Assembly (NCBI GenBank): GCA_017512145.1
Contig: JAFWHB010000003.1
Location: forward strand, 7,629-71,628
Length of the DNA: 64,000 nucleotides
Reading direction: 5' to 3'
Origin: Mogibacterium sp.
GTDB lineage: Bacteria > Bacillota > Clostridia > Peptostreptococcales > Anaerovoracaceae
Within the stretch, counting starts at the first letter, position 1; each line of letters opens with the position of its first letter. The notes beneath the pieces are model-generated. The model was given only the letters and a program-made list of their open reading frames with translations, had not been told where the DNA came from and did not search any database. The position numbers and the translations under genes were made by a program. Positions 1 through 15,958 of this stretch are shown piece after piece.

Positions 1-1
1 T

Positions 2-2104
2 ACCGGTGATATTGAGGACGGAATGTGCGTATACATGGGACTCCTCGCTGATTCCATGCTGAGACACGGAAGAGGCAGAGAGGTCACCAAGGAAGAGGTT
101 TATGAACACCTCAAGAGATGTGAGGACCTTGGATGCGTTCATCAGATCACAACTCTCGAGAATGGCATTTCATTTGCTATCTGTAACTGCCAGCCGCAGA
201 GCTGCATGGCTATCGGCGGTGCATCATATATCGGAGCACCTAACATGGTACGCAGCAACTATGTATCAGAGATCGATACAGAGAAGTGCGTAGCATGCGG
301 ACAGTGCGTTGAGGTTTGTGCTAACAATGCTCTCAGACTCGGACAGAAGATCTGCTCCAAGACGCCTATCGTACACAAGATGGTTGATCTCCCGGATGAT
401 CTTGAGTGGGGTCCTGAGAGACATGATCCTGATTACCGCGATCACAGGAAGAATGTTGTCGAGACAGGTACTTCTCCATGCAAGACAACATGTCCTGCAC
501 ACATCGCTATTCAGGGATATATCAAGCTTGCAGCTCAGGGCAAGTATATGGATGCTCTCGAGCTGATCAAGAAGGAGAACCCATTCCCTGCAGTATGCGG
601 CAGAATCTGCCCTCATAACTGTGAGAATGAGTGTACAAGAGGCGAGATCGACGAGCCTATCGCAATTGATGAGATCAAGAGATTCATCGCAGACAGAGAG
701 CTCGATGCATCACAGAGATTCGTACCTAAGAAGCTCTGGGATCATGACAAGAAGATCGCTGTTATAGGATCCGGTCCTGCCGGACTTTCCTGCGCTTATT
801 ATCTGCAGGCAGGCGGATTCAAGGTAACAGTATTCGAGAAGGAAATGAGACCTGGCGGAATGCTCGTTAACGGCATCCCTGGCTTCAGGCTTGAGAAGGA
901 TGTAGTTGATGCTGAGATAGACGTTCTGAGAACACTTGGTGTCAGGTTCAGATGCGGAGTCGAGGTCGGCAAGGATGTGACCATCCCAGAGCTCCGTGAG
1001 CAGGGCTTTGAGGCATTCTACCTCGGTATCGGACTTCAGAACTGCGGCAAGCTCGGAATCAAGGGCGATGATGCGGCAGGTGTAATGCCAGGCGTTGAGT
1101 TCCTCAAGAGCATCAACCGCGGCAATGATGTAACTGTCAAGGGCAAAGTCGTCGTAATCGGCGGCGGCAGCATCGGAGCTGATGTAGCACGTACAGCAAA
1201 GAGATACGGCGCAGATCAGGTAGATCTGTACTGCATTGAGGCTTATGATGATATGCCTATGGGCGAAGAAGATCAGGCTTACTGCAAGGATGACGGAATC
1301 ATCATCCACGATGGATGGGGCCAGACAGAGATCATCAAGAAGGCAGGCAAGTGCAAAGGTATCAAGTTCCGCAAGTGTCTGTCTGTCAAGAATGAAGAGG
1401 GCAGATTCGATCCTAAGTTCGATGACAGCGTAGTAGAAGAGGCTGCATGCGATACAGTTCTCTACTGCATCGGCCAGAGACCTGACTGGGGAACACTCCT
1501 TGAGGGAACCAAGGTCGAGGTCAATGGAAGAGGTCTTGTTGTAGCAGATCCTCTGACATACCAGACTGCAGAATATGACATCTTCGCAGGCGGAGACATT
1601 TATACAGGACAGAAGTTCTGCATCGATGCTATCGCAGCAGGTAAGCAGGGTGCTATCTCGATCAGCCGTGCTGTATGGGAAGGCCACAGCGTATCCCTTG
1701 CAAGAGACCGCCGCGAGTACATAGCTCTTGACAAGTCAGACCTTGACTTTGACCACATCAGCTATGACAATATCGCAAGACAGGTACCTGGCAAGAACAA
1801 GGCTAAGGCTCACAGCAAGTCCGACGACAGCCTGACATTCACCGAAGAGCAGCTCAAGAAGGAGACTGCAAGATGCCTTGGCTGCGGTGCTACGATCGTC
1901 GATCAGAACCGCTGCATCGGATGCGGACTTTGCACAACAAGATGTAAGTTCGATGCTATCCATCTCATCAAGAAGTTTGACGAGCCAATCCACGGAGTAC
2001 GTTTCCGTAAGAAATTCGTCGAGAACTACCACAAGCAGAGAGAGATGAAGATCCAGGTAAGGAAGTTCCGTGAAGCTGAGAATGCCAAGTTTGGGAGCAA
2101 ATAG
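2..2104 (+). CDS. Fe-S flavoprotein, GltD/NfnB-like NAD(P)H oxidoreductase flanked by 4Fe-4S ferredoxin domains (5' end outside window)
   Basis: The frame is open from nt 2. Motifs seen: CVACGQCVEVC cluster, GltD-type block CKTTCP...CGRICPHNCENEC, GSGPAG and GGGSIG dinucleotide folds, and a C-terminal CLGCG...CIGCGLCTTRC. Confidence 0.8.
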   Translation, partial: TGDIEDGMCVYMGLLADSMLRHGRGREVTKEEVYEHLKRCEDLGCVHQITTLENGISFAICNCQPQSCMAIGGASYIGAPNMVRSNYVSEIDTEKCVACGQCVEVCANNALRLGQKICSKTPIVHKMVDLPDDLEWGPERHDPDYRDHRKNVVETGTSPCKTTCPAHIAIQGYIKLAAQGKYMDALELIKKENPFPAVCGRICPHNCENECTRGEIDEPIAIDEIKRFIADRELDASQRFVPKKLWDHDKKIAVIGSGPAGLSCAYYLQAGGFKVTVFEKEMRPGGMLVNGIPGFRLEKDVVDAEIDVLRTLGVRFRCGVEVGKDVTIPELREQGFEAFYLGIGLQNCGKLGIKGDDAAGVMPGVEFLKSINRGNDVTVKGKVVVIGGGSIGADVARTAKRYGADQVDLYCIEAYDDMPMGEEDQAYCKDDGIIIHDGWGQTEIIKKAGKCKGIKFRKCLSVKNEEGRFDPKFDDSVVEEAACDTVLYCIGQRPDWGTLLEGTKVEVNGRGLVVADPLTYQTAEYDIFAGGDIYTGQKFCIDAIAAGKQGAISISRAVWEGHSVSLARDRREYIALDKSDLDFDHISYDNIARQVPGKNKAKAHSKSDDSLTFTEEQLKKETARCLGCGATIVDQNRCIGCGLCTTRCKFDAIHLIKKFDEPIHGVRFRKKFVENYHKQREMKIQVRKFREAENAKFGSK

Positions 2105-2106
2105 AA

Positions 2107-2472
2107 ATGCATGAACTGACTTTGCTGTTTGGTATAGCAGACAGCGTCGGCAAAGTGGTCAAAGAGAATGATCTCGATCATGTAGATGCTGTTGTAGTTG
2201 ATATCGGTGAGGCAACTGCTGTAGTGCCTGAATTCATGCAGGACGGATATTCAGTGGTATCCGATGAATATGACTTCCTGAGAGGGTCGGAGCTTATCAT
2301 CAACAGGATCAAAGCAATCGGGATATGCCAGAACTGCGGCGAGGAATTCGACATAATGAAATACGAAGGAATCTGCCCGGAGTGCGGCAGCTTCGAGAAG
2401 GAAGTGATCTCCGGATTTGACTTCTATATAAGAGAAGTCAGGGTGTATGAGCATCCGGATCAGACCTCATGA
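2107..2472 (+). CDS. hypA: HypA-like nickel/zinc metallochaperone (hydrogenase maturation factor family)
   Basis: N-terminal MHE motif, about 120 aa, CQNCG...CPECG zinc-ribbon pair. It starts 2 nt after the upstream stop. Confidence 0.7.
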   Translation: MHELTLLFGIADSVGKVVKENDLDHVDAVVVDIGEATAVVPEFMQDGYSVVSDEYDFLRGSELIINRIKAIGICQNCGEEFDIMKYEGICPECGSFEKEVISGFDFYIREVRVYEHPDQTS

Positions 2473-2496
2473 TATCTTAATTCAATAATTACACGG

Positions 2497-2530
2497 GAGA
2501 CCGCAGCATTATTGCCGCGGTCTTTCGCTT
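2497..2530 (+). terminator. Rho-independent terminator after hypA
   Basis: GC-rich hairpin gagaccgc...gcggtct followed by a T-rich tract. Confidence 0.6.
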
Positions 2531-2559
2531 TGTTTGATGAGTTATGGTAAGATAACAGC

Positions 2560-3651
2560 ATGATTGACTATAATTTTGAGCTTAGCGAAACACAATCGAA
2601 TATTCTTGAGAAGTGTCCTGAGTGGAATGAACTGATGAATGTCGTCGAGTTCAGAAATGTGCCGGATGTGAGGGGTGCCGGATACGAGGGCAAAGTGGTC
2701 TTCTATAACAGCCGGCTGATGAGGCAGTATCCTCAGGAGGTCCAGGCCTATCTGATCGCAGAGCAGCTGGTGCATATACAGTTTGCTCATCAGCTGAGAG
2801 GCAAGGGCCTTGAAGGGAAGATCTGGGATGCTGCGTGCAGAGCTGTCGCATGTGAGATGCTTGTATCTGATGGCTTCGAACCACCTGCAGATATGGTCAG
2901 GTACCGGGAGGCTAAGGACCTTGGTGCGGAGGAGATGTACGAGATCCTTCTTGAGCAGGCAGTCAGGGACGAACCACAGCCCGCAGATGATCCATCCGAT
3001 GAACAGCCAATGCAGTATGAAGAGACAGATGTGCTGTATATGCTTAAGAACAGAGATGACAAGCAGCAGGGCGATCTTCAGGGCGCGCAGGACAGAGAGA
3101 TAGAAGATCCGCGTCTTGCCCATGCAGTTGCCGGCCTTTCGGATCTTATGGAACCAAGTCTTCAGGTAGATTATGACTGGTTCCCTGCGGACAGGATCAG
3201 GGATGGAATACTCAAGGAGCAGTTCAAGGCATATCCGGTCCCGCATGCCGAGATACTTCTGGATACGAGTGCGTCTATTGATGAGGATCTCCTGAGAGCA
3301 TTTGTCATGGGCGTCAAGGGTATTCTCAGAGAGGATGCCGTCGTAAAAGTCGGTTGCTTTGACACGGAATTCTATGGATTCCAGGAGATCCATTCTGAGA
3401 AGGATATATCTGAGCTTGAGCTCAAGGGGGCAGGCGGCACGAATTTTGACACTGCAGTCAAAGCCTTCACAGGAGATGCCGAGACCAAGATCATTTTCAC
3501 AGATGGTTATGCAGATATGCCGGGCACAAGGTGTGATGCCATCTGGCTCGTATACAGTGACACGCCGGTGAATCCGCCCGGCGGCAGAGTAATATATGTA
3601 AAGAAACCAGAGGAGATCAAAGACCATGAAATCGATTTTCTTATCACATAA
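2560..3651 (+). CDS. VWA-like domain protein with N-terminal putative metallopeptidase-like domain (DUF2201-type architecture)
   Basis: N-terminal HIQFAH His pair and acidic linker. C-terminal VWA-like block ILLDTSASI...GGTNF...IFTDGY. Overlaps the downstream AAA+ gene by 26 nt. Confidence 0.65.
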   Translation: MIDYNFELSETQSNILEKCPEWNELMNVVEFRNVPDVRGAGYEGKVVFYNSRLMRQYPQEVQAYLIAEQLVHIQFAHQLRGKGLEGKIWDAACRAVACEMLVSDGFEPPADMVRYREAKDLGAEEMYEILLEQAVRDEPQPADDPSDEQPMQYEETDVLYMLKNRDDKQQGDLQGAQDREIEDPRLAHAVAGLSDLMEPSLQVDYDWFPADRIRDGILKEQFKAYPVPHAEILLDTSASIDEDLLRAFVMGVKGILREDAVVKVGCFDTEFYGFQEIHSEKDISELELKGAGGTNFDTAVKAFTGDAETKIIFTDGYADMPGTRCDAIWLVYSDTPVNPPGGRVIYVKKPEEIKDHEIDFLIT

Positions 3652-5260
3652 GCAGCTGTTCGAGAATCCGCTCCAGATATTCAGGTCAGTAGGGAAGACC
3701 GCACAGGCAAGTGACCTCGTTCTTGTGACTATTCCTGATGACGGATTCTCACTTACCGATAATGGTGTCAACTACTTCCTTTCCGGAGACGACTGTGCTG
3801 ACAGATTCGGCAGGGACAACAGGTGCGCAAATTGTGCGGTGAGGCCTGCGATCCTCATGGAGCCGGGCGATGAGAAGCTGCTGAGACATGTCCGCGAGGT
3901 AGGGGATATTGTTACGGTCGAGATGGGAACCTACCCATCCGTCGTGCTCGAGCCGTCGATGCGTGACATGGCAGAGAAACAATACAGGGAAGGGACTCTT
4001 AAGGAGACCGGTTCCAGCTATACTATCGCAGGAGAGGCAAGACCTGTTTACAGACTAGGTGCCAAGAGGATCGTAAGGATCCCGGTCACGGACGAAGCCT
4101 TCAACGGATTTGTCCAGCTTTCAGACGGAACAGCGGTCAGCGTTACTGAGGAGATCTTCATTGAGGTGAGACCTATCCGCTGGTACTATGATGAGCCTAA
4201 CAAGCTGCTGATCTCAGGCAGAGCTCTCTTTGCGGGCCTTGGAAGAGAAGAGGCAGCAGCATATCTTAAGGAAGGATTCCTTGAGGAGCTGCTTGCAGAG
4301 GATGACGGAGAGGACGATTCCGCTGCAGCAGGTACTTCATATCATATAGAAGAACATGATGAGCTTGACCTCATAAGAGCTTTCATCAAGGCGGACATCC
4401 CTGTGTTCATACACGGCCTTACCGGTGACGGCAAGAGTGACCGTGTCAAGGAAATAGATCCTGACGTCCTTGATATTGAACTTGTAAATGAGACACCTGA
4501 GACGATCAACGGCAGGGCGGTATATAACGAGACCAAGGACGAGATCATAGACATCAAGCCGGTCTGGCTTGTCAAGCTCGAGCGTCTCTGCGAGGATGGC
4601 AAGCTGCACATCTTATTCTTCGACGAGCTGACGAATGCCACCAAGCAGACTCAGGCCGTAATATTCAAGATCGTACTTGAGAGATTTGTCAATAACAGAT
4701 GGCCGCTTCCTGCCAATGCACGTATCGTCGCAGCGGGCAATGACCGCAGCGAATCGAGCGTCGCCCATGATCTTGCGGAGCCGCTGTTCGGCAGATTTGC
4801 ACACATATATATCAGGACAACAGTTGAGAACTGGATGCCATGGGCAGTCAGAAAATCAATCAATCCTTATGTCATGGAATTCCTTGCGAATAATGACCTG
4901 TACCTGAGAACAGCATATACAGGTACAGAAGGTTACGCAGACCCGCGCAGATGGGAGATGGTATCGAGAGTTCTCGACAGCTCGGATAATGACTTTGCGC
5001 TGATCGAACCTATCGTCGGACACGAAACAGCCGAAGCCTTCATAAGATTCTTCCGCTCACAGGAAGAAATGGCCGATATTGCAAGATATACAGAAGAAGA
5101 ACTTGCGAGAATGACAGTTGCAAGGAAGTACCAGATAGCACAGCAGTGCCTGTATGCAGCAGCAGCCAAGCCTGCAGAAGCAGAAGAGCTCGTAAGCAAG
5201 CTCGGACCTGAGTTTTCAGCATGGTTCAAGTATGTGCTTGAGAGAAAGAACAGAATCTGA
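3626..5260 (+). CDS. MoxR/AAA_5-type AAA+ ATPase with an unassigned N-terminal domain of about 245 aa
   Basis: Walker A GLTGDGKS, Walker B ILFFDELTNA, sensor region RIVAAGN. GAGGAG RBS upstream of the ATG. Confidence 0.75.
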   Translation: MKSIFLSHKQLFENPLQIFRSVGKTAQASDLVLVTIPDDGFSLTDNGVNYFLSGDDCADRFGRDNRCANCAVRPAILMEPGDEKLLRHVREVGDIVTVEMGTYPSVVLEPSMRDMAEKQYREGTLKETGSSYTIAGEARPVYRLGAKRIVRIPVTDEAFNGFVQLSDGTAVSVTEEIFIEVRPIRWYYDEPNKLLISGRALFAGLGREEAAAYLKEGFLEELLAEDDGEDDSAAAGTSYHIEEHDELDLIRAFIKADIPVFIHGLTGDGKSDRVKEIDPDVLDIELVNETPETINGRAVYNETKDEIIDIKPVWLVKLERLCEDGKLHILFFDELTNATKQTQAVIFKIVLERFVNNRWPLPANARIVAAGNDRSESSVAHDLAEPLFGRFAHIYIRTTVENWMPWAVRKSINPYVMEFLANNDLYLRTAYTGTEGYADPRRWEMVSRVLDSSDNDFALIEPIVGHETAEAFIRFFRSQEEMADIARYTEEELARMTVARKYQIAQQCLYAAAAKPAEAEELVSKLGPEFSAWFKYVLERKNRI

Positions 5261-5280
5261 GCACAATCAAATAGTATGCG

Positions 5281-5309
5281 TTGACTTACCACATGGTCAG
5301 GAATATAAT
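5281..5309 (+). promoter_or_regulatory. Consensus sigma-70-type promoter
   Basis: TTGACT, 17-nt spacer, TATAAT. Confidence 0.7.
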
Positions 5310-5361
5310 GTCTTGGATTGACCAGTTGGCCAATTACAATCACATTATATGGAGGAATTTT

Positions 5362-5672
5362 ATGTTATTTCAGCTTTACAGTGACCATGCCGTAATGCAG
5401 ATCGTCGGCTGGGTACTTGCGTTCTGCGGACTTATTCTCATGAATGAGATCGGCAGGAAGACCAAGATAGGCGGTATGACAGTTCCTCAATGGGAATCCA
5501 CGCTGATCCAAGAGCTCAGGGCGTTGTAGCAATGATGGCTATCGCAGCAAATGTTATCTGCATTGCAGTAATCATCAAGCGCTCCATCGAAATGGGCAAG
5601 AACCCATATTCAAACGAAGTATTCAAGGGAACGAAGGACTTCGAAGAAGCAATGGCAAGAGCCGAGGTTTAA
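5362..5672 (+). pseudogene. Degenerate or frameshifted small membrane-protein gene (two short ORFs in different frames)
   Basis: GGAGGA RBS and ATG at 5362 give a 55-aa ORF with one TM segment ending at 5529. A second hydrophobic ORF (5490-5672) in another frame overlaps it. The unit is bracketed by a consensus promoter and a strong terminator. Confidence 0.4.
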
Positions 5673-5688
5673 TAAGCTTTTCACTATA

Positions 5689-5716
5689 CAGCCGTCCGGC
5701 AGGGCGGCTGTTTTTG
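5689..5716 (+). terminator. Rho-independent terminator
   Basis: cagccgtcc...ggcggctg hairpin followed by TTTTT. Confidence 0.8.
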
Positions 5717-5797
5717 TATATTGTCATAGGAATCGGATATATTGTGGCCGGCTGTGAGTGGTGTTAATATAGAAGCAGTTGATCAGGGAGGTGTGAT

Positions 5798-6994
5798 ATG
5801 AGAGACCTCAGACATATACATTATTATGAAGGACTGCTGGAGCAGACAGATAACGAGCTTGTCCGCAAAGAGAAGGCTGAAGGCGGCATTGCTGCCGGAT
5901 ATACTTGTTATTATGTCCCGGAAGTCCTTTTGAATTGCGGCAAAGCTTTTTCGGTAAGGCTCAGGGCGCCTAATACAGGCTCACTTGATATCAGTCAGTA
6001 TTATATGTCCAGCTTCATCTGCGGCTATACAAGGGCACTCTTCGAGAGAGCCTTTGAGGGCGGCATGAACTTCCTGGACTTCTACGCAAGTTCTGATACA
6101 TGCCAGCAGATGGTCAGAGTCGTTGAGAACATCAGGGATCTTGAGCTGATCAATAATCCGCGCTTTGGCTGGGGCATTATCGATGCACCTCTCAAGATAA
6201 GTCCACACGGAACCAAGCTGTATATCGATCAGATCAGGGAACATATCCTAAGACCGCTGGCAGACAAATACGATATAGATGTATCAGATCAGGCGATCAG
6301 GGCTGCTGTCAGGGAACATAACGAGATGTGCGCTATATTCGAGGAGATATCCGCTTTGCGTAGAGACCTCAATCCGCGCATCACTCCTCGTGAGTTCCAT
6401 ATATTATGCCTTGTCAGCTATGCCTGCCCGACCACGCAGATCCTGCCTTATCTCAGAGAGACGCTGGAAGACCTGAGAACACGTGAGGCAGATCCTGTTT
6501 CAAAATGGAGAGCAAGGGTCATAGTAGTCGGAAGTGAGCTTGACGATTATGATTTCTCAGAGATACTTGAGAACTGCCGCTGCTACATAGCAGCTGACAG
6601 ATATTGCTTTGGCGCATATCCGGGACGCCAGCAGATCCCACTGAATGACGATGAGCCGGCTCTTGATCAGGTTTGCCGCTGGTATCTCGAGACCAATCAG
6701 TGCCCGAGATTCATGTCTCAGGAGAAGATTGCCGACAGACGCGAGACAGTAAAGAAGCTCTGTGATGAGTATCATGCAGACGGCGTTGTCATAGAGCAGG
6801 CCAAATTCTGCGACTTCTGGGGCTATGAACGCACCCTTAATACACAAGTGTTGCGTGATGAATACGGAATCCCGACACTTGGGATCGACAGAGAGTATGT
6901 AGTCCGTGGCTCAGGACAGCTTGCAACGAGGATACAGGCCTTCGTCGAAAGTCTTGAGATCAAGAAGATACAGAAAGGAGGTCCCGGGGCATGA
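5798..6994 (+). CDS. 2-hydroxyacyl-CoA dehydratase / benzoyl-CoA reductase family subunit (smaller, HgdB-like)
   Basis: Family-typical Cys-containing blocks (GYTCYYVP, SSDTCQQM, AKFCDFWGYE) and length. AGGGAGG RBS. ATGA overlap with the next gene. Confidence 0.7.
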   Translation: MRDLRHIHYYEGLLEQTDNELVRKEKAEGGIAAGYTCYYVPEVLLNCGKAFSVRLRAPNTGSLDISQYYMSSFICGYTRALFERAFEGGMNFLDFYASSDTCQQMVRVVENIRDLELINNPRFGWGIIDAPLKISPHGTKLYIDQIREHILRPLADKYDIDVSDQAIRAAVREHNEMCAIFEEISALRRDLNPRITPREFHILCLVSYACPTTQILPYLRETLEDLRTREADPVSKWRARVIVVGSELDDYDFSEILENCRCYIAADRYCFGAYPGRQQIPLNDDEPALDQVCRWYLETNQCPRFMSQEKIADRRETVKKLCDEYHADGVVIEQAKFCDFWGYERTLNTQVLRDEYGIPTLGIDREYVVRGSGQLATRIQAFVESLEIKKIQKGGPGA

Positions 6995-8529
6995 GTAAAG
7001 GCGCAGCCGACAACATGAATAAGGGTACCGGTATCCTTCGCCACCGTGAGTGGAGAGGTCTTCGCGATACAGTTTATGACTATCTTCAGTGGTGCAGACT
7101 CTGGGGTATACTGATCAAGTGGGCTCTGAGTCATCCGGTCCAGAATATCAAGGCTATATTCAGATACCGCTGGATGTTCTCATACCTGACAGTGCCGTCG
7201 TTCTTTGACCGCATCTGCTCGGGGCAGAGAGGAGCAGGGCTGAGGGCAGCCCGCAATAATCTGAACTATCTGGCCAGTGATGTTACAGGAACCCTGACCA
7301 CGATATTCTCCGCAGATATGCATCTTCATCCGGGAAGCAAGAAGGCGGAGGAACTCAACAAGAAAATAATATGTGTGGATGAACTTCTTCCTTCACTTCT
7401 TGGCAAAGGATTCCCGAATTGCAAGACCATCCTCTTCCAGGAGTATCCGATGTATCTTCCGTCGCTTATCAATCAGCACAGTCCGGTCCATTACATAGAG
7501 CAGTCAGAGCTGTATGGACTTCCTGCTGATGTCTGCCCGCTCCCGTCGTTCGAGGCAGGACTTGCTATCGAGGACGATTTTCCTAAGATCGGGTGCTGCA
7601 TGCTGACATCCAACATGCCATGCGACGGCAGCATCATGACAACGATGATACAGGACAGGCGTATAGGTCTTCCTTCCCAGCAGCTGAATGTACCTCTCCG
7701 CTGGAAAGAGGACGAGGTCCAGGAATATGCTGTCGAGGAGATCAAGTCTGCAATAGAATTCCTTGAGAAGTATACAGGTGAGAAATATGACTGGGACGCT
7801 CTCAAGGCAGCATGCGAGATATGGAACGCCCAGAATGAGGCCAAATTCGAGAAGTGGGATATGAACCGCACTGATATCCCGCCTCATACAGGATCCTCGG
7901 CATGGCTTTACAGGATCTTCGAGCATCAGGCAGTCTGCGGTGAGCCTAAGGCTCTTGCCAACGACAGGAAGGTCAATGAAATACTGAGGCGGCAGGTTGC
8001 GGCAGGTAAGTGCCCTAAGACGATCCGTCACCGTGCGATCATCTGGAACACGCCTGCGAACAATTACGCGAATTTCAATAACTGGCTGCTTGAATGCTGG
8101 GGAATAGATTCTGTCTGCGAGATGATCGATATTCACGGTACAGACCTTATCGATACTTCAACCAGAGAGAGCATGCTCTATGGTGTGGCTGATATGTATC
8201 AGACCTCTACAATGAGAGCTCACACCAAGGGCGGTAACGAGGTCATGATAGATGCTCTCTGGGAGAAATATGAAGAATTCAACGCAGATATGATCATCAT
8301 GTTCGATCAGATATCATGCAAAGGAGTCGGTGCGATCAACGGACTCTTCGAAGAGGGAGCTCAGAGAAGAGGCATTCCTATGTGCAGAGTCCGTCAGGAC
8401 CTGATGGATCCTACATCTATTTCAAGAAGAGAGATGAGAGGCGACGTCAACGCATTCATGCAGACTGTAATGAATGAAGAACCACTCGACCCGACACTTG
8501 TGGAATTTGATGATGATAAGAGCTGGTAA
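6991..8529 (+). CDS. 2-hydroxyacyl-CoA dehydratase family subunit (larger, HgdA-like, with an extra N-terminal region of about 100 aa)
   Basis: Blocks DVCPLP, NMPCDGS and FDQISCKG are typical of the family. Translationally coupled to the upstream subunit. Confidence 0.7.
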   Translation: MSKGAADNMNKGTGILRHREWRGLRDTVYDYLQWCRLWGILIKWALSHPVQNIKAIFRYRWMFSYLTVPSFFDRICSGQRGAGLRAARNNLNYLASDVTGTLTTIFSADMHLHPGSKKAEELNKKIICVDELLPSLLGKGFPNCKTILFQEYPMYLPSLINQHSPVHYIEQSELYGLPADVCPLPSFEAGLAIEDDFPKIGCCMLTSNMPCDGSIMTTMIQDRRIGLPSQQLNVPLRWKEDEVQEYAVEEIKSAIEFLEKYTGEKYDWDALKAACEIWNAQNEAKFEKWDMNRTDIPPHTGSSAWLYRIFEHQAVCGEPKALANDRKVNEILRRQVAAGKCPKTIRHRAIIWNTPANNYANFNNWLLECWGIDSVCEMIDIHGTDLIDTSTRESMLYGVADMYQTSTMRAHTKGGNEVMIDALWEKYEEFNADMIIMFDQISCKGVGAINGLFEEGAQRRGIPMCRVRQDLMDPTSISRREMRGDVNAFMQTVMNEEPLDPTLVEFDDDKSW

Positions 8530-8541
8530 GGAGGACATACA

Positions 8542-8697
8542 ATGAAAGCAATCATGATAATACTTATAATACTTGTTGTGCTCTTCCTTCTTACAGTACT
8601 TATCTACTGGTTCAACCTCGACACCAAGATCGTCAAGGCCATAGAGAAGCCGATGATGAAGCACTACGACAGCATTAAGAGAGATAACAGGTTATAG
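8542..8697 (+). CDS. 51-aa single-pass membrane micro-protein (absent from the ORF track)
   Basis: AAGGAGG RBS 5 nt upstream of the ATG. Translation is MKAIMIILIILVVLFLLTVLIYWFNLDTKIVKAIEKPMMKHYDSIKRDNRL. It fills the gap between two genes exactly. Confidence 0.6.
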   Translation: MKAIMIILIILVVLFLLTVLIYWFNLDTKIVKAIEKPMMKHYDSIKRDNRL

Positions 8698-8703
8698 ACA
8701 TTG

Positions 8704-9630
8704 ATGAACTTTGATACACAGCATAAATCAATACAGACAACGGACACTGTTCTTATGGTAGTACCTGCTGCCTTTGGCTACAACGAGGAGACAGCAGTTA
8801 ACAATTCATTCCAGAGCAGGACCTTCGGCGGGGATATCGCTGAGACTGCCATCAAAGAAACAGAAGCCTACATCAGATTACTTAAAGAAAACGGCATCAC
8901 CGTGCTCGTTGCGTATGATACGCCGGAGCCTCGCACCCCTGATGCTGTATTTCCTAACAACTGGTTCAGTACACATGAAGATGGAATACTGGTCATGTAT
9001 CCTATGTTCGCTGAGAACAGAAGGCTCGAGCGTAAGCAATGGCCTCTTGAGGAGATAACTGCAAACTTTGACATCTCAAGGATGGTTGATCTCAGACCAT
9101 ATGAGGAGAAGGGAATGTTCCTTGAAGGTACAGGCTCGCTGGTCCTCGACAGGGTGAATAGGATAGCATACGCGTGCAAGTCTCCAAGGACAAACATGAC
9201 TGTTCTTGACGACTTCTGCAGCCAGCTAGGATATACACCTTGTGTCTTTGAGGCATATGATGAAGTGGGCCTGCAGATATATCATACTAATGTAATGATG
9301 AACGTCGGAACAAGAATAGCGGTGGTCTGCATGGATTCGATCAGAGACCCTGGCCAGAGGGAGCTTGTCAGAGAGACACTTGAGAAGACGGGCAAAGTAA
9401 TCATGGAGATAACTCCGGATCAGATGAATCATTTTGCAGGCAACATGCTCGAGCTTCATAACAGATGCGGTAAGCCATGCCTTGTCATGTCGCAAACAGC
9501 ATATAACAGTCTTACGGACGGGCAGATAAGAATGCTTGAGACCCATATGAAGCTGATAACGCCGGACATCCCTTGCATAGAGCAGATCGGCGGAGGATCA
9601 GCAAGATGCATGCTCGCAGAGATATTCTAA
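8704..9630 (+). CDS. Guanidino-group-modifying enzyme superfamily protein (amidinotransferase / arginine-deiminase-related, CtlX-like)
   Basis: About 308 aa. C-terminal GGGSARCMLAEIF carries the catalytic Cys signature of this superfamily. Confidence 0.65.
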   Translation: MNFDTQHKSIQTTDTVLMVVPAAFGYNEETAVNNSFQSRTFGGDIAETAIKETEAYIRLLKENGITVLVAYDTPEPRTPDAVFPNNWFSTHEDGILVMYPMFAENRRLERKQWPLEEITANFDISRMVDLRPYEEKGMFLEGTGSLVLDRVNRIAYACKSPRTNMTVLDDFCSQLGYTPCVFEAYDEVGLQIYHTNVMMNVGTRIAVVCMDSIRDPGQRELVRETLEKTGKVIMEITPDQMNHFAGNMLELHNRCGKPCLVMSQTAYNSLTDGQIRMLETHMKLITPDIPCIEQIGGGSARCMLAEIF

Positions 9631-9639
9631 GCTCTTCAT

Positions 9640-9661
9640 AGCCCTCACAGGAGGGCTTTTC
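9640..9661 (+). terminator. Rho-independent terminator
   Basis: agccctc acag gagggct followed by TTTT. Confidence 0.75.
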
Positions 9662-9754
9662 TAATCTTAAGAATGTTGTAATAATTACATAAGATGTTTC
9701 TTAATATAATTATTCTAGTATATAGTCAGGGATCGAAAAGGAGGCTAATACATC

Positions 9755-10462
9755 ATGTCCGGTAAGAAACAGACCACAATACTTATAGTCGATGATGACA
9801 AGGCTATTGCAGATGCAGTCGCTTTCTATCTGAAGGGTGAAGGCTACGATACTGTAATGGCATATGACGGTATTGAAGCGCTGAATGCCATGAAGTCATG
9901 CGACATAAGCCTGATCATAATGGACATTATGATGCCGGGTCTCGATGGGATCCAGACCACACTCAGAATCCGTGAGGAACACAATATTCCTATTATCATG
10001 CTCTCTGCGAAGACAGAGGATTATGACAAGATCATGGGACTGAATGTCGGCGCAGATGACTATGTGACCAAACCTTTCAATCCCCTTGAACTTATAGCAA
10101 GGGTCAAATCTCAGCTAAGAAGATACAACTACCTCGGAAGTGCTGCGCCGGTCTCTGACAAAGTATTCAGGACCGGCGGCCTCGAGATCAATGATGATTC
10201 CAGGACGGTAACCATCGATGGTGAGGAGGTGTCGCTTACACCGACTGAGTACGGGATACTCAAGCTTCTCACCGAGAATGCCGGAAGAGTATACAGCATT
10301 GAGCAGATATACGAAGCTGTATGGAATGAAGAGGCATACAATCCAGAGAACACTGTAGCAGTACACATCAGAAGGATAAGGGAGAAGATCGAGATAGACC
10401 CTAAGAATCCGCGTTACCTCAAGGTCGTATGGGGCGTCGGATATAAAGTGGAGAAGGTGTAA
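9755..10462 (+). CDS. OmpR-family response regulator
   Basis: Receiver domain (ILIVDDD...MDIMMPGLDG) plus a winged-helix C-terminus (VWGVGYK). Confidence 0.9.
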   Translation: MSGKKQTTILIVDDDKAIADAVAFYLKGEGYDTVMAYDGIEALNAMKSCDISLIIMDIMMPGLDGIQTTLRIREEHNIPIIMLSAKTEDYDKIMGLNVGADDYVTKPFNPLELIARVKSQLRRYNYLGSAAPVSDKVFRTGGLEINDDSRTVTIDGEEVSLTPTEYGILKLLTENAGRVYSIEQIYEAVWNEEAYNPENTVAVHIRRIREKIEIDPKNPRYLKVVWGVGYKVEKV

Positions 10463-10463
10463 T

Positions 10464-12185
10464 ATGGATATTAAGAAATCAAGAGGATTATACGCGGTCT
10501 GCTCAGTTCTGGCGCCGCTCTCAGGAGCCGCAATAGGGGCACTGGCAGCTATCCTGAGCTGCGTATCGAATATGGCGGATAAGGCACATCTGACCAAGGA
10601 AGAATTCGAGGACCTGTCCAATTATGGCTGGGTAGCAGAATTTACCAGCAGCAGAGCAAGAGCTGAGCTCTGTGAATATCTGCTCTGGGGTATAATAGCG
10701 GCCGGAATCGTCTTCGCTGTTACCTTCATAATGCTGAATATTATGACAGGGAATACAGACCGGAATGAAGACGGATCAATCAGACTGAACTGGTTTGACA
10801 GGATCTGGAGCGAGGTTCATATCGCCGGCGGTATATTTGCTGCTACAATGGCAATCATTCAGGCAGGATATATTCACAGCATTGCAAGGAGTCTTGACTG
10901 GTTCGCAGCATACAAACCAGTCAATCCGAACAATTATGAATTAGGCATACCGAATCAGAGTGCTTTCATCATGCTCTTCATAGGCATGGCAGCGATGATC
11001 TGGGCTGCAGTAGCCTGCTGGCTCTCGCTGGTCAAGAAGATCAAGGCCAGGGAACTTCTTAATAAGTCCTTACTTGGCAAACTCATTATCACAGTATGGA
11101 CCGGAATCAGAAAGGCATGGGATACTCTCCGTGCCGGCTACAGAAGCTTCTCAGTACCAGAGGATGCAGATCAGCGGGCAGCGTTCAAGCTTATTATCAA
11201 GTATTGCCTGATAGCAGCAGCCCTGATATGGGGACCGATAATCTGCAACACGGTATTCTTCGGATTCTCTAGTGGGTTCCTGATCCTACCTGCGTTCATA
11301 TCCACGATACTTGCGGCATATATTATCATTCGCAGGATCGGCAAGATTGCTGAGATAAGGGCAGGGGTCATATCTGTTAAGTCGGGAGACCTTGCTCACC
11401 GTATCACGGTCAACTGCGATATGAATGGTCCTAAGACTGAACTCGACAAGCTCGCATCAGACATCAATCACATCTCTGAGGCAACAGACATAGCTGTTCA
11501 GAATGAGATCAAGAATCAGAGACTCAAGACGGACCTTATCAGCAATGTCTCTCATGATCTCAAGACACCGCTTACCTCGATGATAAGCTATCTGGATATT
11601 CTTGAAAGAGAGGGCCTTGACAGTCCTGATGCAGAAGAACATCTTGCGATAGTCCGCGAGAAGACCGACAGACTGAAGACTTTGACCGAGGAACTCTTCG
11701 AAGCAGCCAAAGCATCAAGCGGCAATATCCCTTGTGAGATCGAAGACATCGACATTGCTGCTCTTGTCGATCAGTCTCTGGCAGAACTTTCAGACAGACT
11801 GTCAGCAAGGAATCTGATCATCAGGAAGAGCATCAGGACAGAGCAAACTATGGTCAGGGCTGACGGCAAGCTGCTGTACAGAGTGTTCGAGAACCTCCTG
11901 AGCAATATCAGCAAGTATGCTCTCGAAGGCAGCCGTGTATATATTGATGTCAATGACATACCTGGCTCAGAGAGAAAGCTCATAGAATTCAAGAATATCT
12001 CGAAGGATGAGCTCAACATCAGTGCAGATGAACTCATGGAGAGGTTCACAAGAGGCGATTCTTCAAGGAATACTGAAGGCAGCGGACTCGGACTTGCGAT
12101 AGCCAGAGACCTCACAACTCTGATGGGCGGTAACTTTGATATCAGCATCGACGGAGACATGTTCAAGGCATCGGTCAGGATCTGA
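10464..12185 (+). CDS. Sensor histidine kinase with multi-TM N-terminal sensor
   Basis: H-box SHDLKTPLTSM, N/G boxes (GSGLGLAI), several N-terminal TM segments. Adjacent to the response regulator. Confidence 0.9.
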   Translation: MDIKKSRGLYAVCSVLAPLSGAAIGALAAILSCVSNMADKAHLTKEEFEDLSNYGWVAEFTSSRARAELCEYLLWGIIAAGIVFAVTFIMLNIMTGNTDRNEDGSIRLNWFDRIWSEVHIAGGIFAATMAIIQAGYIHSIARSLDWFAAYKPVNPNNYELGIPNQSAFIMLFIGMAAMIWAAVACWLSLVKKIKARELLNKSLLGKLIITVWTGIRKAWDTLRAGYRSFSVPEDADQRAAFKLIIKYCLIAAALIWGPIICNTVFFGFSSGFLILPAFISTILAAYIIIRRIGKIAEIRAGVISVKSGDLAHRITVNCDMNGPKTELDKLASDINHISEATDIAVQNEIKNQRLKTDLISNVSHDLKTPLTSMISYLDILEREGLDSPDAEEHLAIVREKTDRLKTLTEELFEAAKASSGNIPCEIEDIDIAALVDQSLAELSDRLSARNLIIRKSIRTEQTMVRADGKLLYRVFENLLSNISKYALEGSRVYIDVNDIPGSERKLIEFKNISKDELNISADELMERFTRGDSSRNTEGSGLGLAIARDLTTLMGGNFDISIDGDMFKASVRI

Positions 12186-12204
12186 TAATCAGATAATCAT
12201 ACGG

Positions 12205-12231
12205 TGGCTCCGGATGTTCCGGGGCCATTTT
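12205..12231 (+). terminator. Rho-independent terminator
   Basis: tggctccgg...ccggggcca followed by TTTT. Confidence 0.75.
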
Positions 12232-12337
12232 GATTTGCATTTCAAATCTAAAGTTCTCTAAATTTTCACATATCCGTGACTTGCTTTTAAACTGGAATTG
12301 TATAATTGACATGTAAGAGAAAACATCATCAGGAGGC

Positions 12338-13330
12338 ATGGTAATGACATATATTAACAGACACAGACGCTATTTATTCATGATAATTGTCGGTATCTTT
12401 ATTGCTGCTATAGCGATCGCTGCGACATCCTGCGGCGATGGTTCAGCAAAGAGAGCAGAGAATGAGGAGCGTGTCATAAGAGCAGTATCAGAATACCCTG
12501 GTGACGGACTTTATGATCCGGTGGTCACTGTACTTGGCGTTGATGTTCCGGCTCCTACCGAAGAAGAGAAGAAGGAAGCCGAAGAACAAGCCGCTGCAGA
12601 GAAGGCAGCCTGGGAGAAGGCTGTCGGAGACTGTTTTGCAGAGGGAATGTTCGAGAACTTCTATGACAAGTGGTACCGGATCCATGTTGTAGGAATAGCA
12701 TATGCACGTAATTTGACCACTGAAGTGACAGAACTCAGTACAGAAGACGATGATGCTTCAGATAATATCGAGCATGTACTGACGAAGATCACTGCAACAG
12801 ACTCCTCCGGAAAGGCTCAGGAATTCGACATGGACTGGATGGTCGTCTTTGACAAAGACGACAAGAGCTTGATACAGAGGATCGAGCTTCAGGACGATGG
12901 CGGATTCTATGAATCAACCAGTGCCCAGTTCGACATCGGCGAAGGACTGACAGTAACAGAGGACGAAGAGAACGACACCAGGACCATAGAGACAGATTAT
13001 TTCACACTGACACTTGGAAGAGCCAGCACCTGGAACTATGAGCAGAATGATCCGGGCAGGATCTCGATTTACAACACAGCAGCTCATGATGCCGGCATTG
13101 GGGGACATATTATGTCAGTACAGGCCTTCGATCCTGAGGATGAATCTTATGACATCATCCCTAATAAGGTAATTGGTGAGAAAGAAGGCAAGAAAATAGT
13201 TGTAACATATGCCTCCGATGTGCAATATAATATTAATGATAATGCTCAATCAGATGATTATATGACCGTCCGCAGAGAGGCGGAGACCATTAAGGAAGGA
13301 GGGGCTGAAGGGCCGCTCAGACTCAAGTAG
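12338..13330 (+). CDS. Hypothetical membrane-anchored or lipoprotein
   Basis: N-terminal TM/signal segment ending AATSC (lipobox-like), then an acidic low-complexity linker. Confidence 0.5.
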   Translation: MVMTYINRHRRYLFMIIVGIFIAAIAIAATSCGDGSAKRAENEERVIRAVSEYPGDGLYDPVVTVLGVDVPAPTEEEKKEAEEQAAAEKAAWEKAVGDCFAEGMFENFYDKWYRIHVVGIAYARNLTTEVTELSTEDDDASDNIEHVLTKITATDSSGKAQEFDMDWMVVFDKDDKSLIQRIELQDDGGFYESTSAQFDIGEGLTVTEDEENDTRTIETDYFTLTLGRASTWNYEQNDPGRISIYNTAAHDAGIGGHIMSVQAFDPEDESYDIIPNKVIGEKEGKKIVVTYASDVQYNINDNAQSDDYMTVRREAETIKEGGAEGPLRLK

Positions 13331-13353
13331 CATTTCGCAAGGAGGAGATAGTA

Positions 13354-14265
13354 ATGAAGAAATACATCAGCATACTGCTCGCACTGATGGTGGTCCTGGC
13401 ATTTTCAGGCTGTGAGCCAAAGAATTCAGGTGATGATGTACCTGCAGATGACGGCCAGAATCCGGTCATGAACTTTGTCGGCAATTATGTGTGCGACAGA
13501 GCATCCATCTTCATCTCTGCAGAGGGAGAGGACGGTGCCAGCGCTATCGTCAGATGGGCAAGCAGTGCATCTGAGAATTCAAGCTGGATGATGAGCGGTA
13601 CATTCGACACAGAAACTCTCAGGTTCGATTACACCAATGGAGTCAGAACAGACTATGTGAATAATGACCAGAGCGAGGAAGACAGTGTAACTGAGGCCTA
13701 TACTGATGGCACCGGTTATATGCAGTTCACAGATGGTGAGAATCTCACACTCGAATGGCATGATGATAAGGAGAATATTGCCGATGGCATGGTCTTCGAA
13801 TATTCATCAGAGATGCCGACTGCCGGAATGACCAATCCATGGCAGACTGCAGACACACTTGCAGCAGCAGCCGAAGGCGCAGGCCTTGACGGCTTTGATA
13901 TTGCTGAGGGCAGCCAGATCAGCCTCGGAGAGATCAAGGCTGAAGAGTACAGATACATGGATGGCCTTGCAGAAGCCCGTATTCCTGCCGCAGCAGTCGA
14001 AATGACCATCCGCAAGGGAACTTCTATGGCAGCAGGACCTGAAGGAGATGTATCCGGTGACTACAATGAGTACAAGTTCAACTGGACACAGAACATCAAG
14101 GGCCTTGAGGTCCAGTGCTACGGCAACCGTGAGGGAGAGGCTACCAAGACAATCTGGTCATCGGGAGATTACTGCTATGCGATCCTCGCATACGGTGCAG
14201 GCGGAGACGATGACTTTGGGCTTAGTGCAGACGATCTGAATTCACTGATCAACGGCATTCAATAA
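13354..14265 (+). CDS. Hypothetical lipoprotein
   Basis: Signal peptide with a canonical lipobox LAFSGC. GGAGG RBS. Confidence 0.6.
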   Translation: MKKYISILLALMVVLAFSGCEPKNSGDDVPADDGQNPVMNFVGNYVCDRASIFISAEGEDGASAIVRWASSASENSSWMMSGTFDTETLRFDYTNGVRTDYVNNDQSEEDSVTEAYTDGTGYMQFTDGENLTLEWHDDKENIADGMVFEYSSEMPTAGMTNPWQTADTLAAAAEGAGLDGFDIAEGSQISLGEIKAEEYRYMDGLAEARIPAAAVEMTIRKGTSMAAGPEGDVSGDYNEYKFNWTQNIKGLEVQCYGNREGEATKTIWSSGDYCYAILAYGAGGDDDFGLSADDLNSLINGIQ

Positions 14266-14288
14266 TACATATTCAGCTGAATAATAAC

Positions 14289-14317
14289 TTGACTTACAAG
14301 TCGTAACGAAATAGAAT
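14289..14317 (+). promoter_or_regulatory. Sigma-70-type promoter upstream of the MATE transporter
   Basis: TTGACT, 17-nt spacer, TAGAAT. Confidence 0.55.
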
Positions 14318-14406
14318 ATTACAGTCATTCAAGAGGATAGCATCTGCGTGGCAGTTGCTATTCTCTTTATAATGAAAGAATTATTACAGGGCAGAGGGGA
14401 TAAGCC

Positions 14407-15780
14407 ATGTGGAAGAAGTTATTTGAACCGGTAGATATGACGCAGGGAGATCCGGTTCGACAGATCGTCAAATTCATGATACCAATGCTGATAGGTAATG
14501 TCTTTCAGCAGCTTTATAATACAGTAGACAGCATCGTAGTCGGCAAATATGTAGGGGATAATGCCCTCGCAGCTGTAGGCAGCGCAGGACCTATACTCAA
14601 TCTGCTGCTGGTTCTTTTCATCGGTATATCTGTCGGTGCCGGAATCATGGTATCGCAGTACTATGGAGCCAAGCAGAGAAAGTCTCTGTCCAAGTCGATC
14701 GGCTGCTGCATTACCATGACATTCCTTTCGTCACTTATAGTCATGGGCATTGCTCCGCTGATCATTATGCCGCTTCTCAAGATGCTCAACACTCCTGCTG
14801 AGATAATCGACTGGTGCAATGGTTATCTGAGAATAGTGTTCCTCGGAATAGCAGGCAGCGCATTCTACAACATTCTCGGTGGTGTACTGAGAGGTCTCGG
14901 AGATTCAATATCCGCACTCTGGTATCTGATCATTGCAACTATCCTCAATATCGTTCTGGATATTTACTTCGTTGCAGGACTCGGAATGGGGGTCAACGGC
15001 GTTGCACTTGCTACAGTCATTGCGCAGGGAGTATCTGCAGTTCTTTCATTCCTCAAGCTCTGCAGGAAGAAGGATTGCTTCGACATGAAGGCTAAATATC
15101 TCAAGCCTGAGAGGAAGTACTTCATGGAGCTCGTAAGACTGGGACTTCCATCCGGCATTACACAGATGATCTTCTCACTTTCGATCGTTATCGTGCAGTC
15201 CCTTACTAACAGCTTTGGCGCTATGTGCATTGCTACTAACGTCATCGTAATGAGGATCGACGGATTCGTAATGATGCCGGCATTCTCATTCGGCTCTGCA
15301 ATGACGACCTTCGCAGGACAGAATATCGGAGCCGGAAGACTTGACCGTGTCCAGGATGGAGCAAAGCGCGGCACTAAGGTCGCTATGGCTACTTCGGCAG
15401 TGATCACTCTGCTGATACTTGTTTTCGGTAAGTATCTGATGGCACTCTTTACCAACACTCAGGAGCTTATCGATCAGAGTTATCATATGATGCTGATACT
15501 TGGCCTGGGATATATTGCTATGGAGGTAACACAGTGCCTTCAGGGAATCATGAGAGGAGCTGGAGACACTATGACTCCGATGTGGCTCTCGATGATTTCA
15601 ACTGTAGTTATCCGTCTGCCACTTGCATATCTGATGACATGGATGACAAGATCCCCGGAGAATCCTCAGGGCGAATTCTATATGATGTTCCTTTCTCTGC
15701 TTATTTCATGGCTCATAGGATCGGCTCTGACATTTATCCTGTATAAGAAAGGAAACTGGAAACGCAAAGCTCTGATTTAG
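14407..15780 (+). CDS. MATE family efflux transporter
   Basis: About 457 aa with 12 predicted TM segments. N-terminal PMLIGNVFQQLYNTVDSIVVG block is typical of MATE/NorM proteins. Confidence 0.85.
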   Translation: MWKKLFEPVDMTQGDPVRQIVKFMIPMLIGNVFQQLYNTVDSIVVGKYVGDNALAAVGSAGPILNLLLVLFIGISVGAGIMVSQYYGAKQRKSLSKSIGCCITMTFLSSLIVMGIAPLIIMPLLKMLNTPAEIIDWCNGYLRIVFLGIAGSAFYNILGGVLRGLGDSISALWYLIIATILNIVLDIYFVAGLGMGVNGVALATVIAQGVSAVLSFLKLCRKKDCFDMKAKYLKPERKYFMELVRLGLPSGITQMIFSLSIVIVQSLTNSFGAMCIATNVIVMRIDGFVMMPAFSFGSAMTTFAGQNIGAGRLDRVQDGAKRGTKVAMATSAVITLLILVFGKYLMALFTNTQELIDQSYHMMLILGLGYIAMEVTQCLQGIMRGAGDTMTPMWLSMISTVVIRLPLAYLMTWMTRSPENPQGEFYMMFLSLLISWLIGSALTFILYKKGNWKRKALI

Positions 15781-15816
15781 CACAAATGCAGACAACTTAA
15801 TAATATAAAGTAACGA

Positions 15817-15848
15817 CCTCGAAATTTGACCAAAATTTCGAGGTTTTT
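15817..15848 (+). terminator. Rho-independent terminator
   Basis: cctcgaaatt...aatttcgagg followed by TTTTT. Confidence 0.85.
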
Positions 15849-15958
15849 ATAAATTATTGAAAGCGAACAAGCGCTGTGGCAATATTTAAATATGAAATCA
15901 GAAGATTTACATGGTATTGTAAATCTTTTTCAGTGTTCACGTGTGGAGGCAATTAATT

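Follow-up and report, generated by a model that had tools for sequence, protein, structure and literature searches.

A benzoyl-CoA reductase-like gene pair and its micro-membrane partner in Mogibacterium sp.: a probable satellite module with a citrullinase-type passenger gene

In a 64,000-nucleotide (nt) stretch of a Mogibacterium sp. genome (assembly GCA_017512145.1, contig JAFWHB010000003.1; G000:C2:7629-71628 in our numbering, hereafter the window), two coupled genes of the benzoyl-CoA reductase/2-hydroxyacyl-CoA dehydratase (BCR/HAD) superfamily, encoding subunits A and B, are followed by a gene for a micro-membrane peptide of 51 amino acids (aa) and by a gene for a putative citrullinase, ctlX, raising the question of what such a pair does here and whether it shares a pathway with its unusual neighbor. 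BCR/HAD enzymes perform some of biology's hardest reductions, such as the Birch-type reduction of benzoyl-CoA. The original prediction, made from the window alone, saw in A and B an orphan ketyl-radical dehydratase functionally paired with a guanidino-modifying enzyme, perhaps on a reductive route for an arginine- or citrulline-derived 2-hydroxy acid. Having examined the host genome (2.36 Mb, 95.7% complete) and related loci, we consider it likely that A, B and the peptide are instead a satellite module of an ATP-driven, low-potential iron-sulfur reductase of the BCR/HAD superfamily, served in trans by helper proteins encoded on another contig of the same genome (C31), with ctlX as a passenger.

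The gene arrangement is as first described, with open reading frame (ORF) calls and a hairpin scan returning the ATGA-coupled pair, the 51-aa membrane ORF, the CtlX gene and the terminator at 9640 (Table 1). Read directly from the sequence, the A/B junction with its ATGA overlap is GCATGAGT (gggGCATGAgt) with AAAGGAGG just upstream, a GGAGG lies 7 nt 5′ of the ATG of the 51-aa ORF, and ctlX starts 3-6 nt past the stop codon of the peptide gene. With intergenic gaps of 3-12 nt and one terminator pair bracketing all of them, A, B, the peptide gene and ctlX form a tight apparent operon.

This layout speaks for placing A/B and CtlX together in a single pathway, whose substrate would be a 2-hydroxy acid derived from arginine or citrulline, or some other ureido or guanidino compound. 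The fourth protein matched the CtlX model NF046062 with 404 bits (cut-off 334) and PF19420 with 339 bits, carries its catalytic cysteine in a C-terminal GGGSARC motif and ends in GGGSARCMLAEIF. Its translation contains FPNN and HTN motifs, with Asn in place of the guanidino-binding Asp, and since these motifs tell the putative citrullinase CtlX from guanidino-group enzymes (PMC9007349), the protein is predicted to be a ureido (citrulline) hydrolase rather than the guanidino-modifying enzyme first proposed. The citrulline hydrolase activity of CtlX has genetic support only in the reference organisms (Price et al. 2022, PMC9007349). In the host genome, a genome-wide search found neither arginine deiminase (PF02274) nor ornithine cyclodeaminase (PF02423), one carbamoyltransferase-family gene is present at C14:23947, and none of the CtlX partner genes known from Proteobacteria was found with CtlX.

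Conservation of the gene neighborhood bears directly on this question. At least 592 stretches in species-representative genomes, mostly of gut and rumen Clostridia, encode a relative of subunit B, and our related-locus comparisons covered 83 loci, with relatives of B drawn from 80 of these stretches; co-occurrence was surveyed in 24 genomes of the genus, 16 genomes of other families in the order and five from other lineages. The related loci are of two types, a full type with the gene order CooC-like ATPase, A, B, activase, peptide and mini-ACS (an acetyl-CoA synthase fragment), often followed by a methyltransferase, and a minimal type with A, B and peptide, to which the locus in the window belongs. 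Apparent losses of A in many loci and of B in one (L017) might have indicated broken genes or recoding, and are explained by long overlapping or antisense ORFs.

No CtlX homologue was found in any of the 83 related loci, including nine in which B is 83-89% identical to that of the window, an outcome that the original prediction had itself named as counting against the pairing. Among the 24 congeners, CtlX was present in one (G008), where it lies away from any A/B pair, and an orthologue of the window's pair (C2-type, at least 77% identity) was present in six, all of them without CtlX, so that the adjacency was seen in none of the congeners. Elsewhere the pair and CtlX were adjacent only in L100 and L103, two metagenome contigs syntenic with the window whose CtlX is 98% and 93% identical; these are strain or sister-species contigs, and the persistence of the arrangement in them counts in favor of a joint pathway. 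After these, the closest CtlX (69% identity) comes from Mogibacterium sp. and stands beside a pyridoxal phosphate (PLP) enzyme, a transporter and CbiMQO. A possible second link between peptide and CtlX near this gene (L101, L102) was rejected, the 52-aa ORF upstream of the PLP enzyme being unrelated to the peptide; the two PLP enzymes are also unrelated to each other.

The genes behind the peptide vary between sister species and show no common chemistry. A D-serine ammonia-lyase gene (equivalog-level match) directly follows the peptide gene in the sister species L018 and L023, the two ORFs sharing 17 nt at the end of that of the peptide in L018 (11552-13070). In L019, L021, L022 and L024, the peptide position is followed by a ~1000-aa fusion of a flavoenzyme resembling old yellow enzyme (OYE), BaiCD and bilirubin reductase with a short-chain dehydrogenase/reductase (SDR), and past it by genes for a tocopherol-cyclase-like protein, an iron-containing alcohol dehydrogenase (Fe-ADH), an amidohydrolase and an aldehyde:ferredoxin oxidoreductase (AFOR; for example L022:11795-20796), a run that in these four close relatives may constitute a reductive catabolic island. 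An AFOR gene also lies behind the peptide in L028, and the neighbors that recur among minimal loci are reductive enzymes, namely enoate-reductase-like proteins, AFOR and Fe-ADH. The nitrogen-releasing D-serine ammonia-lyase and amidohydrolase in or near the sister-species operon make an amino-acid-derived substrate possible for this clade. However, neither a 2-hydroxyacid dehydrogenase nor a CoA-transferase was found nearby, and given how consistently CtlX is missing from otherwise similar loci, we judge a shared pathway very unlikely.

CtlX is best read as a passenger gene that joined the operon in one species, and its link to the pair is species-specific and probably without metabolic meaning. 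It would act as an independent citrulline hydrolase, converting citrulline to ornithine, appended to the module in this species only and sharing its transcript but not its pathway. With the adjacency unconserved, a reductive route for an arginine- or citrulline-derived 2-hydroxy acid is not indicated, and the proposed radical pathway for arginine or citrulline can be set aside.

What A and B themselves catalyze is a separate matter. Both match PF06050 (HGD-D; A 275 bits, B 141 bits, cut-off 28.4), the match in B being confined to residues 167-491, which bears out their assignment to the 2-hydroxyacyl-CoA dehydratase/benzoyl-CoA reductase family. All solved relatives are remote; the closest to A is BzdN (8s02_B, E = 1.7e-16), then HadC, the double-cubane cluster protein (DCCP) and MbdN, and the order for the B profile is DCCP, MbdO, HadB and BzdO. 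The PF06050 match in both subunits, the presence of HadB and HadC among these relatives and the spare activases in the genome would all suit an ordinary (R)-2-hydroxyacyl-CoA dehydratase of the Hgd, Had, Fld or Lcd kind whose partners are encoded elsewhere. However, NCBIfam scores fell far under every equivalog cut-off (NF052456 HadC 64.7 against 700, TIGR03190 (BzdN) 57 against 453.8, TIGR02263 50.9 against 421), and even the best NCBIfam match of both A and B, NF040772 (DCCP), reached 107 and 39 bits against a cut-off of 350.

The conserved cysteines point in another direction. In A, Cys37, Cys75, Cys102, Cys270, Cys302 and Cys338 are the sole cysteines invariant in 81 of 81 family members, and in a phmmer alignment they fall exactly on Cys36, Cys73, Cys100, Cys263, Cys293 and Cys327 of BzdN, the ligands of its [8Fe-9S] double cubane (PMC11971306). 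A shoulder at 660 nm is reported for BzdNO and assigned there to the double cubane in its two-electron-reduced state (PMC11971306). B has exactly three invariant cysteines, Cys182, Cys211 and Cys443, in 87 of 87 sequences, which align with MbdO and DCCP cysteines where the catalytic [4Fe-4S] cluster has its ligands; in BzdO these ligands are Cys95, Cys128 and Cys380 (PMC11971306). In the alignment of HadC to A, by contrast, no cysteine matches Cys37 or Cys270, and the 2-hydroxyacyl-CoA dehydratases have lost the [8Fe-9S] double cubane (PMC11971306). Since A keeps all six ligands of a cluster that the dehydratases have lost, the ketyl-radical dehydratase chemistry first proposed is probably wrong, and by its predicted cofactors A/B looks like a two-cluster reductase of the BzdNO type and not like a dehydratase.

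An AlphaFold2 model of B (predicted local distance difference test (pLDDT) 77.9, predicted TM-score (pTM) 0.83) had BzdO, MbdO, DCCP and HadB as its top Foldseek matches, with TM-scores normalized to the target of 0.62-0.78. The modeled fold of B is thus the one expected for the superfamily, two alpha/beta domains with a helical bundle. As the BCR-like and dehydratase-like matches all lie at E ~1e-12 with no separation between them, the cysteine pattern of A is the informative feature for telling the two kinds of enzyme apart. The extra N-terminal region of about 100 aa claimed for B in the original prediction is present, its length being corrected to ~90 aa relative to BzdO and MbdO, with ~165 aa preceding the Pfam match. 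This extension (~residues 20-110) is modeled as helices over residues 24-108 with pLDDT values of 76-95, mostly >85, and the N-terminus of B carries two Trp/Arg-rich motifs, REWRG..DT.YDY..W and RYRWM..YL, that are invariant or nearly so across the paralogues. The B subunit next to the activase on C31 has ~110 extra N-terminal residues.

Two further observations bear on a dehydratase reading. The partners that A and B have across their own family, namely the peptide, the CooC-like ATPase and the mini-ACS, are not known from dehydratases, and a classical HgdAB-like pair, accompanied by an activase of its own, is already present in the genome at C19:145055-148360. Taken with the cysteines and the scores, these observations make an ordinary dehydratase with distant partners, in our estimate, highly improbable.

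If A and B form a reductase, its helpers would lie outside the operon. Among the genes scanned (window 1-17650) there is no activase, CoA-transferase or 2-hydroxyacid dehydrogenase, as first noted, and no CoA-ligase was present among the neighbors scanned; CoA-transferase and 2-hydroxyacid dehydrogenase were likewise not among the neighbors of the related loci, no genome-wide search having been made for them. The pair is thus an orphan within the window, but the description does not extend to the genome, where three stand-alone activase genes and one fusion with two activase domains are present. In total, the genome contains five PF01869 activase matches and fifteen PF06050 matches, among which five A/B pairs share the architecture of the pair in the window (~400 aa plus 512-621 aa; identity to the window's pair 44-50% for A and 35-40% for B), three of them together on C31.

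One of the C31 pairs lies in an operon of the full type (Table 1), and the CooC-like ATPase, activase and mini-ACS that are all missing from the window's operon are present there. The CooC-like protein, a CooC/MinD-like P-loop ATPase, has 253 aa, and the peptide homologue has 60 aa. The activase is a BcrAD/BadFG-type ATPase, proteins of this type scoring 164-193 bits against the BcrA and BzdQ models. The mini-ACS has 245 aa and matches the CdhC profile PF03598 over the acetyl-CoA synthase region ahead of the A-cluster domain. A search of the 95.7%-complete genome found no CO dehydrogenase (Prismane family, PF03063), and the CooC-like ATPase and mini-ACS therefore serve no Wood-Ljungdahl enzyme.

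The distribution of these genes suggests that the C31 cluster could act for the other pairs in trans. Full loci have one activase gene each, in cis. A tree built from B groups the minimal loci into a single 26-row clade (Shimodaira-Hasegawa-like approximate likelihood ratio (SH-aLRT) support 100) that includes the window's copy and is nested among lineages with full loci. Of the 24 genomes surveyed in the genus, 23 had a detected B and 21 a detected mini-ACS, and one 97%-complete congener is without both; neither was present in any of the 16 genomes from other families of the order. Among the five genomes with minimal loci from other lineages, four have a mini-ACS elsewhere. The C31 activase is 82-85% identical to that of loci labelled Acutalibacteraceae, Oscillospiraceae or Ca. 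Fimenecus (among L048-L096), compared with ~60% for A, 46% for B, 61% for the CooC-like ATPase and ~41% for the mini-ACS. This conservation is a sign either of unusually strong constraint or of recent transfer, and an activase so much better conserved than A and B fits one shared "engine" that serves diverging catalytic "heads".

Least probable of the explanations considered is that the copy in the window has no function of its own, being a paralogue made redundant or decaying after a duplication that left it without helpers. In favor of this, the genome carries five copies in all, activase, CooC-like and mini-ACS genes are missing in cis, and only six of 24 congeners have an orthologue. Against it, the three ORFs are intact with every predicted ligand present, and minimal-type orthologues have been kept at 66-89% identity across several families, in every case accompanied by the peptide and with coupled starts, which indicates purifying selection.

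The third member of the module, the micro-membrane peptide, is a conserved companion of the pair. A homologue lies behind the pair or its activase in ~73 of the 83 related loci, and in most of the remainder the contig ends too early; the gap from B or the activase to the peptide gene is 0-45 nt in nearly all loci. The link to a micro-membrane protein noted in the original prediction is therefore upheld and extended, the peptide being a subunit-like partner across the whole subfamily. In the host genome, a motif search placed the peptide with three of the five paralogous pairs: that of the window, the C17 pair (directly behind) and the C31 pair (directly behind its activase). Its consensus has an N-terminal transmembrane helix, the motif IY[W/F]FNLDxKL, ~10 residues, and then H-YD...RD..L, and it is kept across partners whose B is 46-89% identical to that of the window. 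No Pfam or NCBIfam model matches it. Because the tail is basic, it should face the cytoplasm, where A and B reside; a membrane tether is the simplest role for the peptide, and its tail most likely binds A/B.

Taking these observations together, we propose that the predicted [8Fe-9S] double cubane of A would receive and store electrons and that B would contribute a predicted catalytic [4Fe-4S] cluster and a family-specific helical N-terminal domain. The peptide would be a single-pass protein that keeps the enzyme at the membrane through binding of A/B to its conserved basic cytoplasmic tail. The activase, CooC-like ATPase and mini-ACS would be supplied in trans by the C31 master cluster, which would also serve the other paralogous pairs.

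Several points weigh against this proposal. The cluster types are assigned from aligned cysteines only, and service in trans is inferred from co-occurrence among genomes that are related rather than independent, so that the counts are descriptive. Two congeners, at 71-79% completeness, have B but no detectable mini-ACS, and in one other genome, G043, a pair likewise stands without a detectable mini-ACS. In L029, L032, L033 and L059, no peptide was detectable despite enough downstream DNA. Three independent assemblies, from this species or from sister species, keep the CtlX operon, so co-expression of CtlX with the module may have some local selective value. We nevertheless regard a reductase module with helpers in trans and a passenger ctlX as the probable reading of the locus.

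More tentatively, we speculate that a single activase, CooC-like ATPase and acetyl-CoA synthase fragment mature or energize interchangeable, peptide-tethered A/B modules that differ in their substrates, possibly lipophilic compounds other than CoA esters. On this possible but doubtful extension, the helpers may deliver nickel or another metal, and the locus in the window would be one detachable head among many driven by one engine, movable between genomes and fusable to unrelated catabolic genes.

Table 1. Coordinates of the operon, its boundaries and the C31 helper genes (positions without a contig prefix refer to the window)
Feature	Position	Strand	Description
Subunit A	5798-6994	+	398 aa, BzdN/HadC-type; predicted [8Fe-9S] double-cubane carrier
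Subunit B	6991-8529	+	512 aa, BzdO/HadB/DCCP-type catalytic subunit; helical N-terminal extension
Micro-membrane peptide	8542-8697	+	51 aa, single-pass; conserved partner of A/B
CtlX-type putative citrullinase	8701-9630	+	309 aa; same operon
5′ boundary, terminator-like hairpin closing upstream unit	5688-5711	+	10-pair stem, 7 GC pairs, then TTTTTGTAT
3′ end of operon, terminator-like hairpin	9640-9657	+	7-pair stem, 5 GC pairs, then TTTTCT
Possible extended -10 promoter	5742-5770	+	TTGTGG-17-TGtTAATAT; read by eye, under consensus-scan threshold; putative
Full operon	C31:149000-155023		CooC-like ATPase, A, B, BcrAD activase, peptide, mini-ACS
C31 pair in full operon	C31:151180-154235		A + B
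BcrAD activase directly behind C31 pair	C31:150111-150902		263 aa, PF01869

Some further features of these loci deserve mention. Upstream of the 5′ terminator, a near-consensus promoter (TTGACT-17-TATAAT) lies at window 5281-5309, and between the two are two short out-of-frame hydrophobic ORFs (5362-5529 and 5490-5672) that resemble a broken small membrane-protein gene. Gene pairs of the AAA+/VWA type adjoin two of the five A/B loci, one at window 2560-5260 (DUF2201 and a protein of 544 aa that weakly matches AAA) and one at G000:C17:27761-29928 (MoxR AAA_3 plus a 386-aa protein). These were considered as partners and rejected: none of the 20 closest related loci compared has an equivalent of the window's AAA/VWA pair, and the proximity of this pair to A/B is thus probably coincidental.

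Elsewhere in the host genome, the three C31 pairs belong to a supercluster (C31:149000-165131) that also encodes HtpG (638 aa), a His-rich protein of 138 aa and an aldo-keto reductase bearing a 4Fe-4S dicluster domain. At C19:112541-117250, an open frame of 1470 aa contains two BcrAD_BadFG domains and is possibly an ether-lipid enzyme of the PlsA/Ger type. At C17:168898-169934, an HGD-D match is divided between two adjacent frames (profile positions 1-206 in one and 206-342 in the other), with an activase beside it (C17:167742-168512); a frameshift, a pseudogene or the presence of two genes could account for the split.

Full-text literature searches found no paper describing the combination of CooC-like ATPase, A, B, activase, peptide and mini-ACS, and the enzyme system is a variant within the BCR/HAD superfamily that is new to the literature searched. 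The A/B/peptide unit is a clean example of a large branch of predicted ATP-driven iron-sulfur reductases, that of the B-encoding stretches counted above. It suggests that a catalytic pair and its micro-membrane protein can travel as a self-contained unit without helpers, and that a single genome can hold five such units around one helper cluster. The unit also acquires unrelated passenger genes, by which guilt-by-association annotation can be misled, the D-serine ammonia-lyase at L018 and L023 being a second unrelated gene of amino-acid catabolism joined to the module. The substrates, once identified, would reveal new reductive metabolism of gut and rumen bacteria.

Set beside known systems, the passenger resembles the CtlX reference proteins (NF046062; PMC9007349) in its equivalog score, FPNN and HTN motifs and C-terminal catalytic cysteine. 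Unlike the genes studied in Proteobacteria, it does not stand beside ocd or aruFG.

The pair itself is most reminiscent of BzdNO and MbdON (PDB 8S02, 9G87/9GAI; PMC11971306), which share with it a heterodimer of two HGD-D-fold subunits, six double-cubane cysteines in A and three catalytic [4Fe-4S] cysteines in B, and a BcrAD/BadFG-type ATPase as the driver; BzdN is the best sequence match for A, and BzdO the best fold match for B. However, the B model is only 12-20% identical to BzdO and MbdO in the Foldseek alignments, and NCBIfam scores reach about one-tenth of the equivalog cut-offs. Where the Bzd system has a PQ pair, the full loci here have one activase gene each, and no genes of a benzoyl-CoA/dienoyl-CoA pathway were present among the neighbors scanned. 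The ~90-aa helical N-terminal domain of B, the 51-aa peptide, the CooC-like ATPase and the mini-ACS have no counterpart in BCRs.

With the dehydratases HadBC (3O3M), HgdAB, FldBC and LcdAB, the system shares superfamily, fold, a single activase gene of the homodimeric type and the three-cysteine catalytic [4Fe-4S] site. It differs from them in the predicted double cubane, whose six ligands are all kept in A, whereas the small subunit of dehydratases has a single cubane remnant ([4Fe-4S]/[4Fe-5S]), and in falling short of their equivalog scores, as for HadC.

DCCP and its reductase DCCP-R (PDB 6ENO, 7YYL; PMC9351452) provide the best NCBIfam match for A and B and the best sequence match for the B profile, and there too an activase-type ATPase drives the reduction. 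DCCP, however, is a homodimer in which both subunits carry a double cubane, whereas the six cysteines here are confined to A, with three in B, and the scores of A and B stay well under the DCCP cut-off.

The PlsA/PlsR plasmalogen synthase and the Ger glycerol ester reductase combine BcrAD and HGD-D and work at the membrane, with substrates other than CoA esters (PMC13159169). They are large fusions with DUF2229, with no separate peptide, CooC-like protein or mini-ACS, but by their description they offer a precedent for a membrane-associated member of this superfamily, as we propose for the peptide-tethered A/B module.

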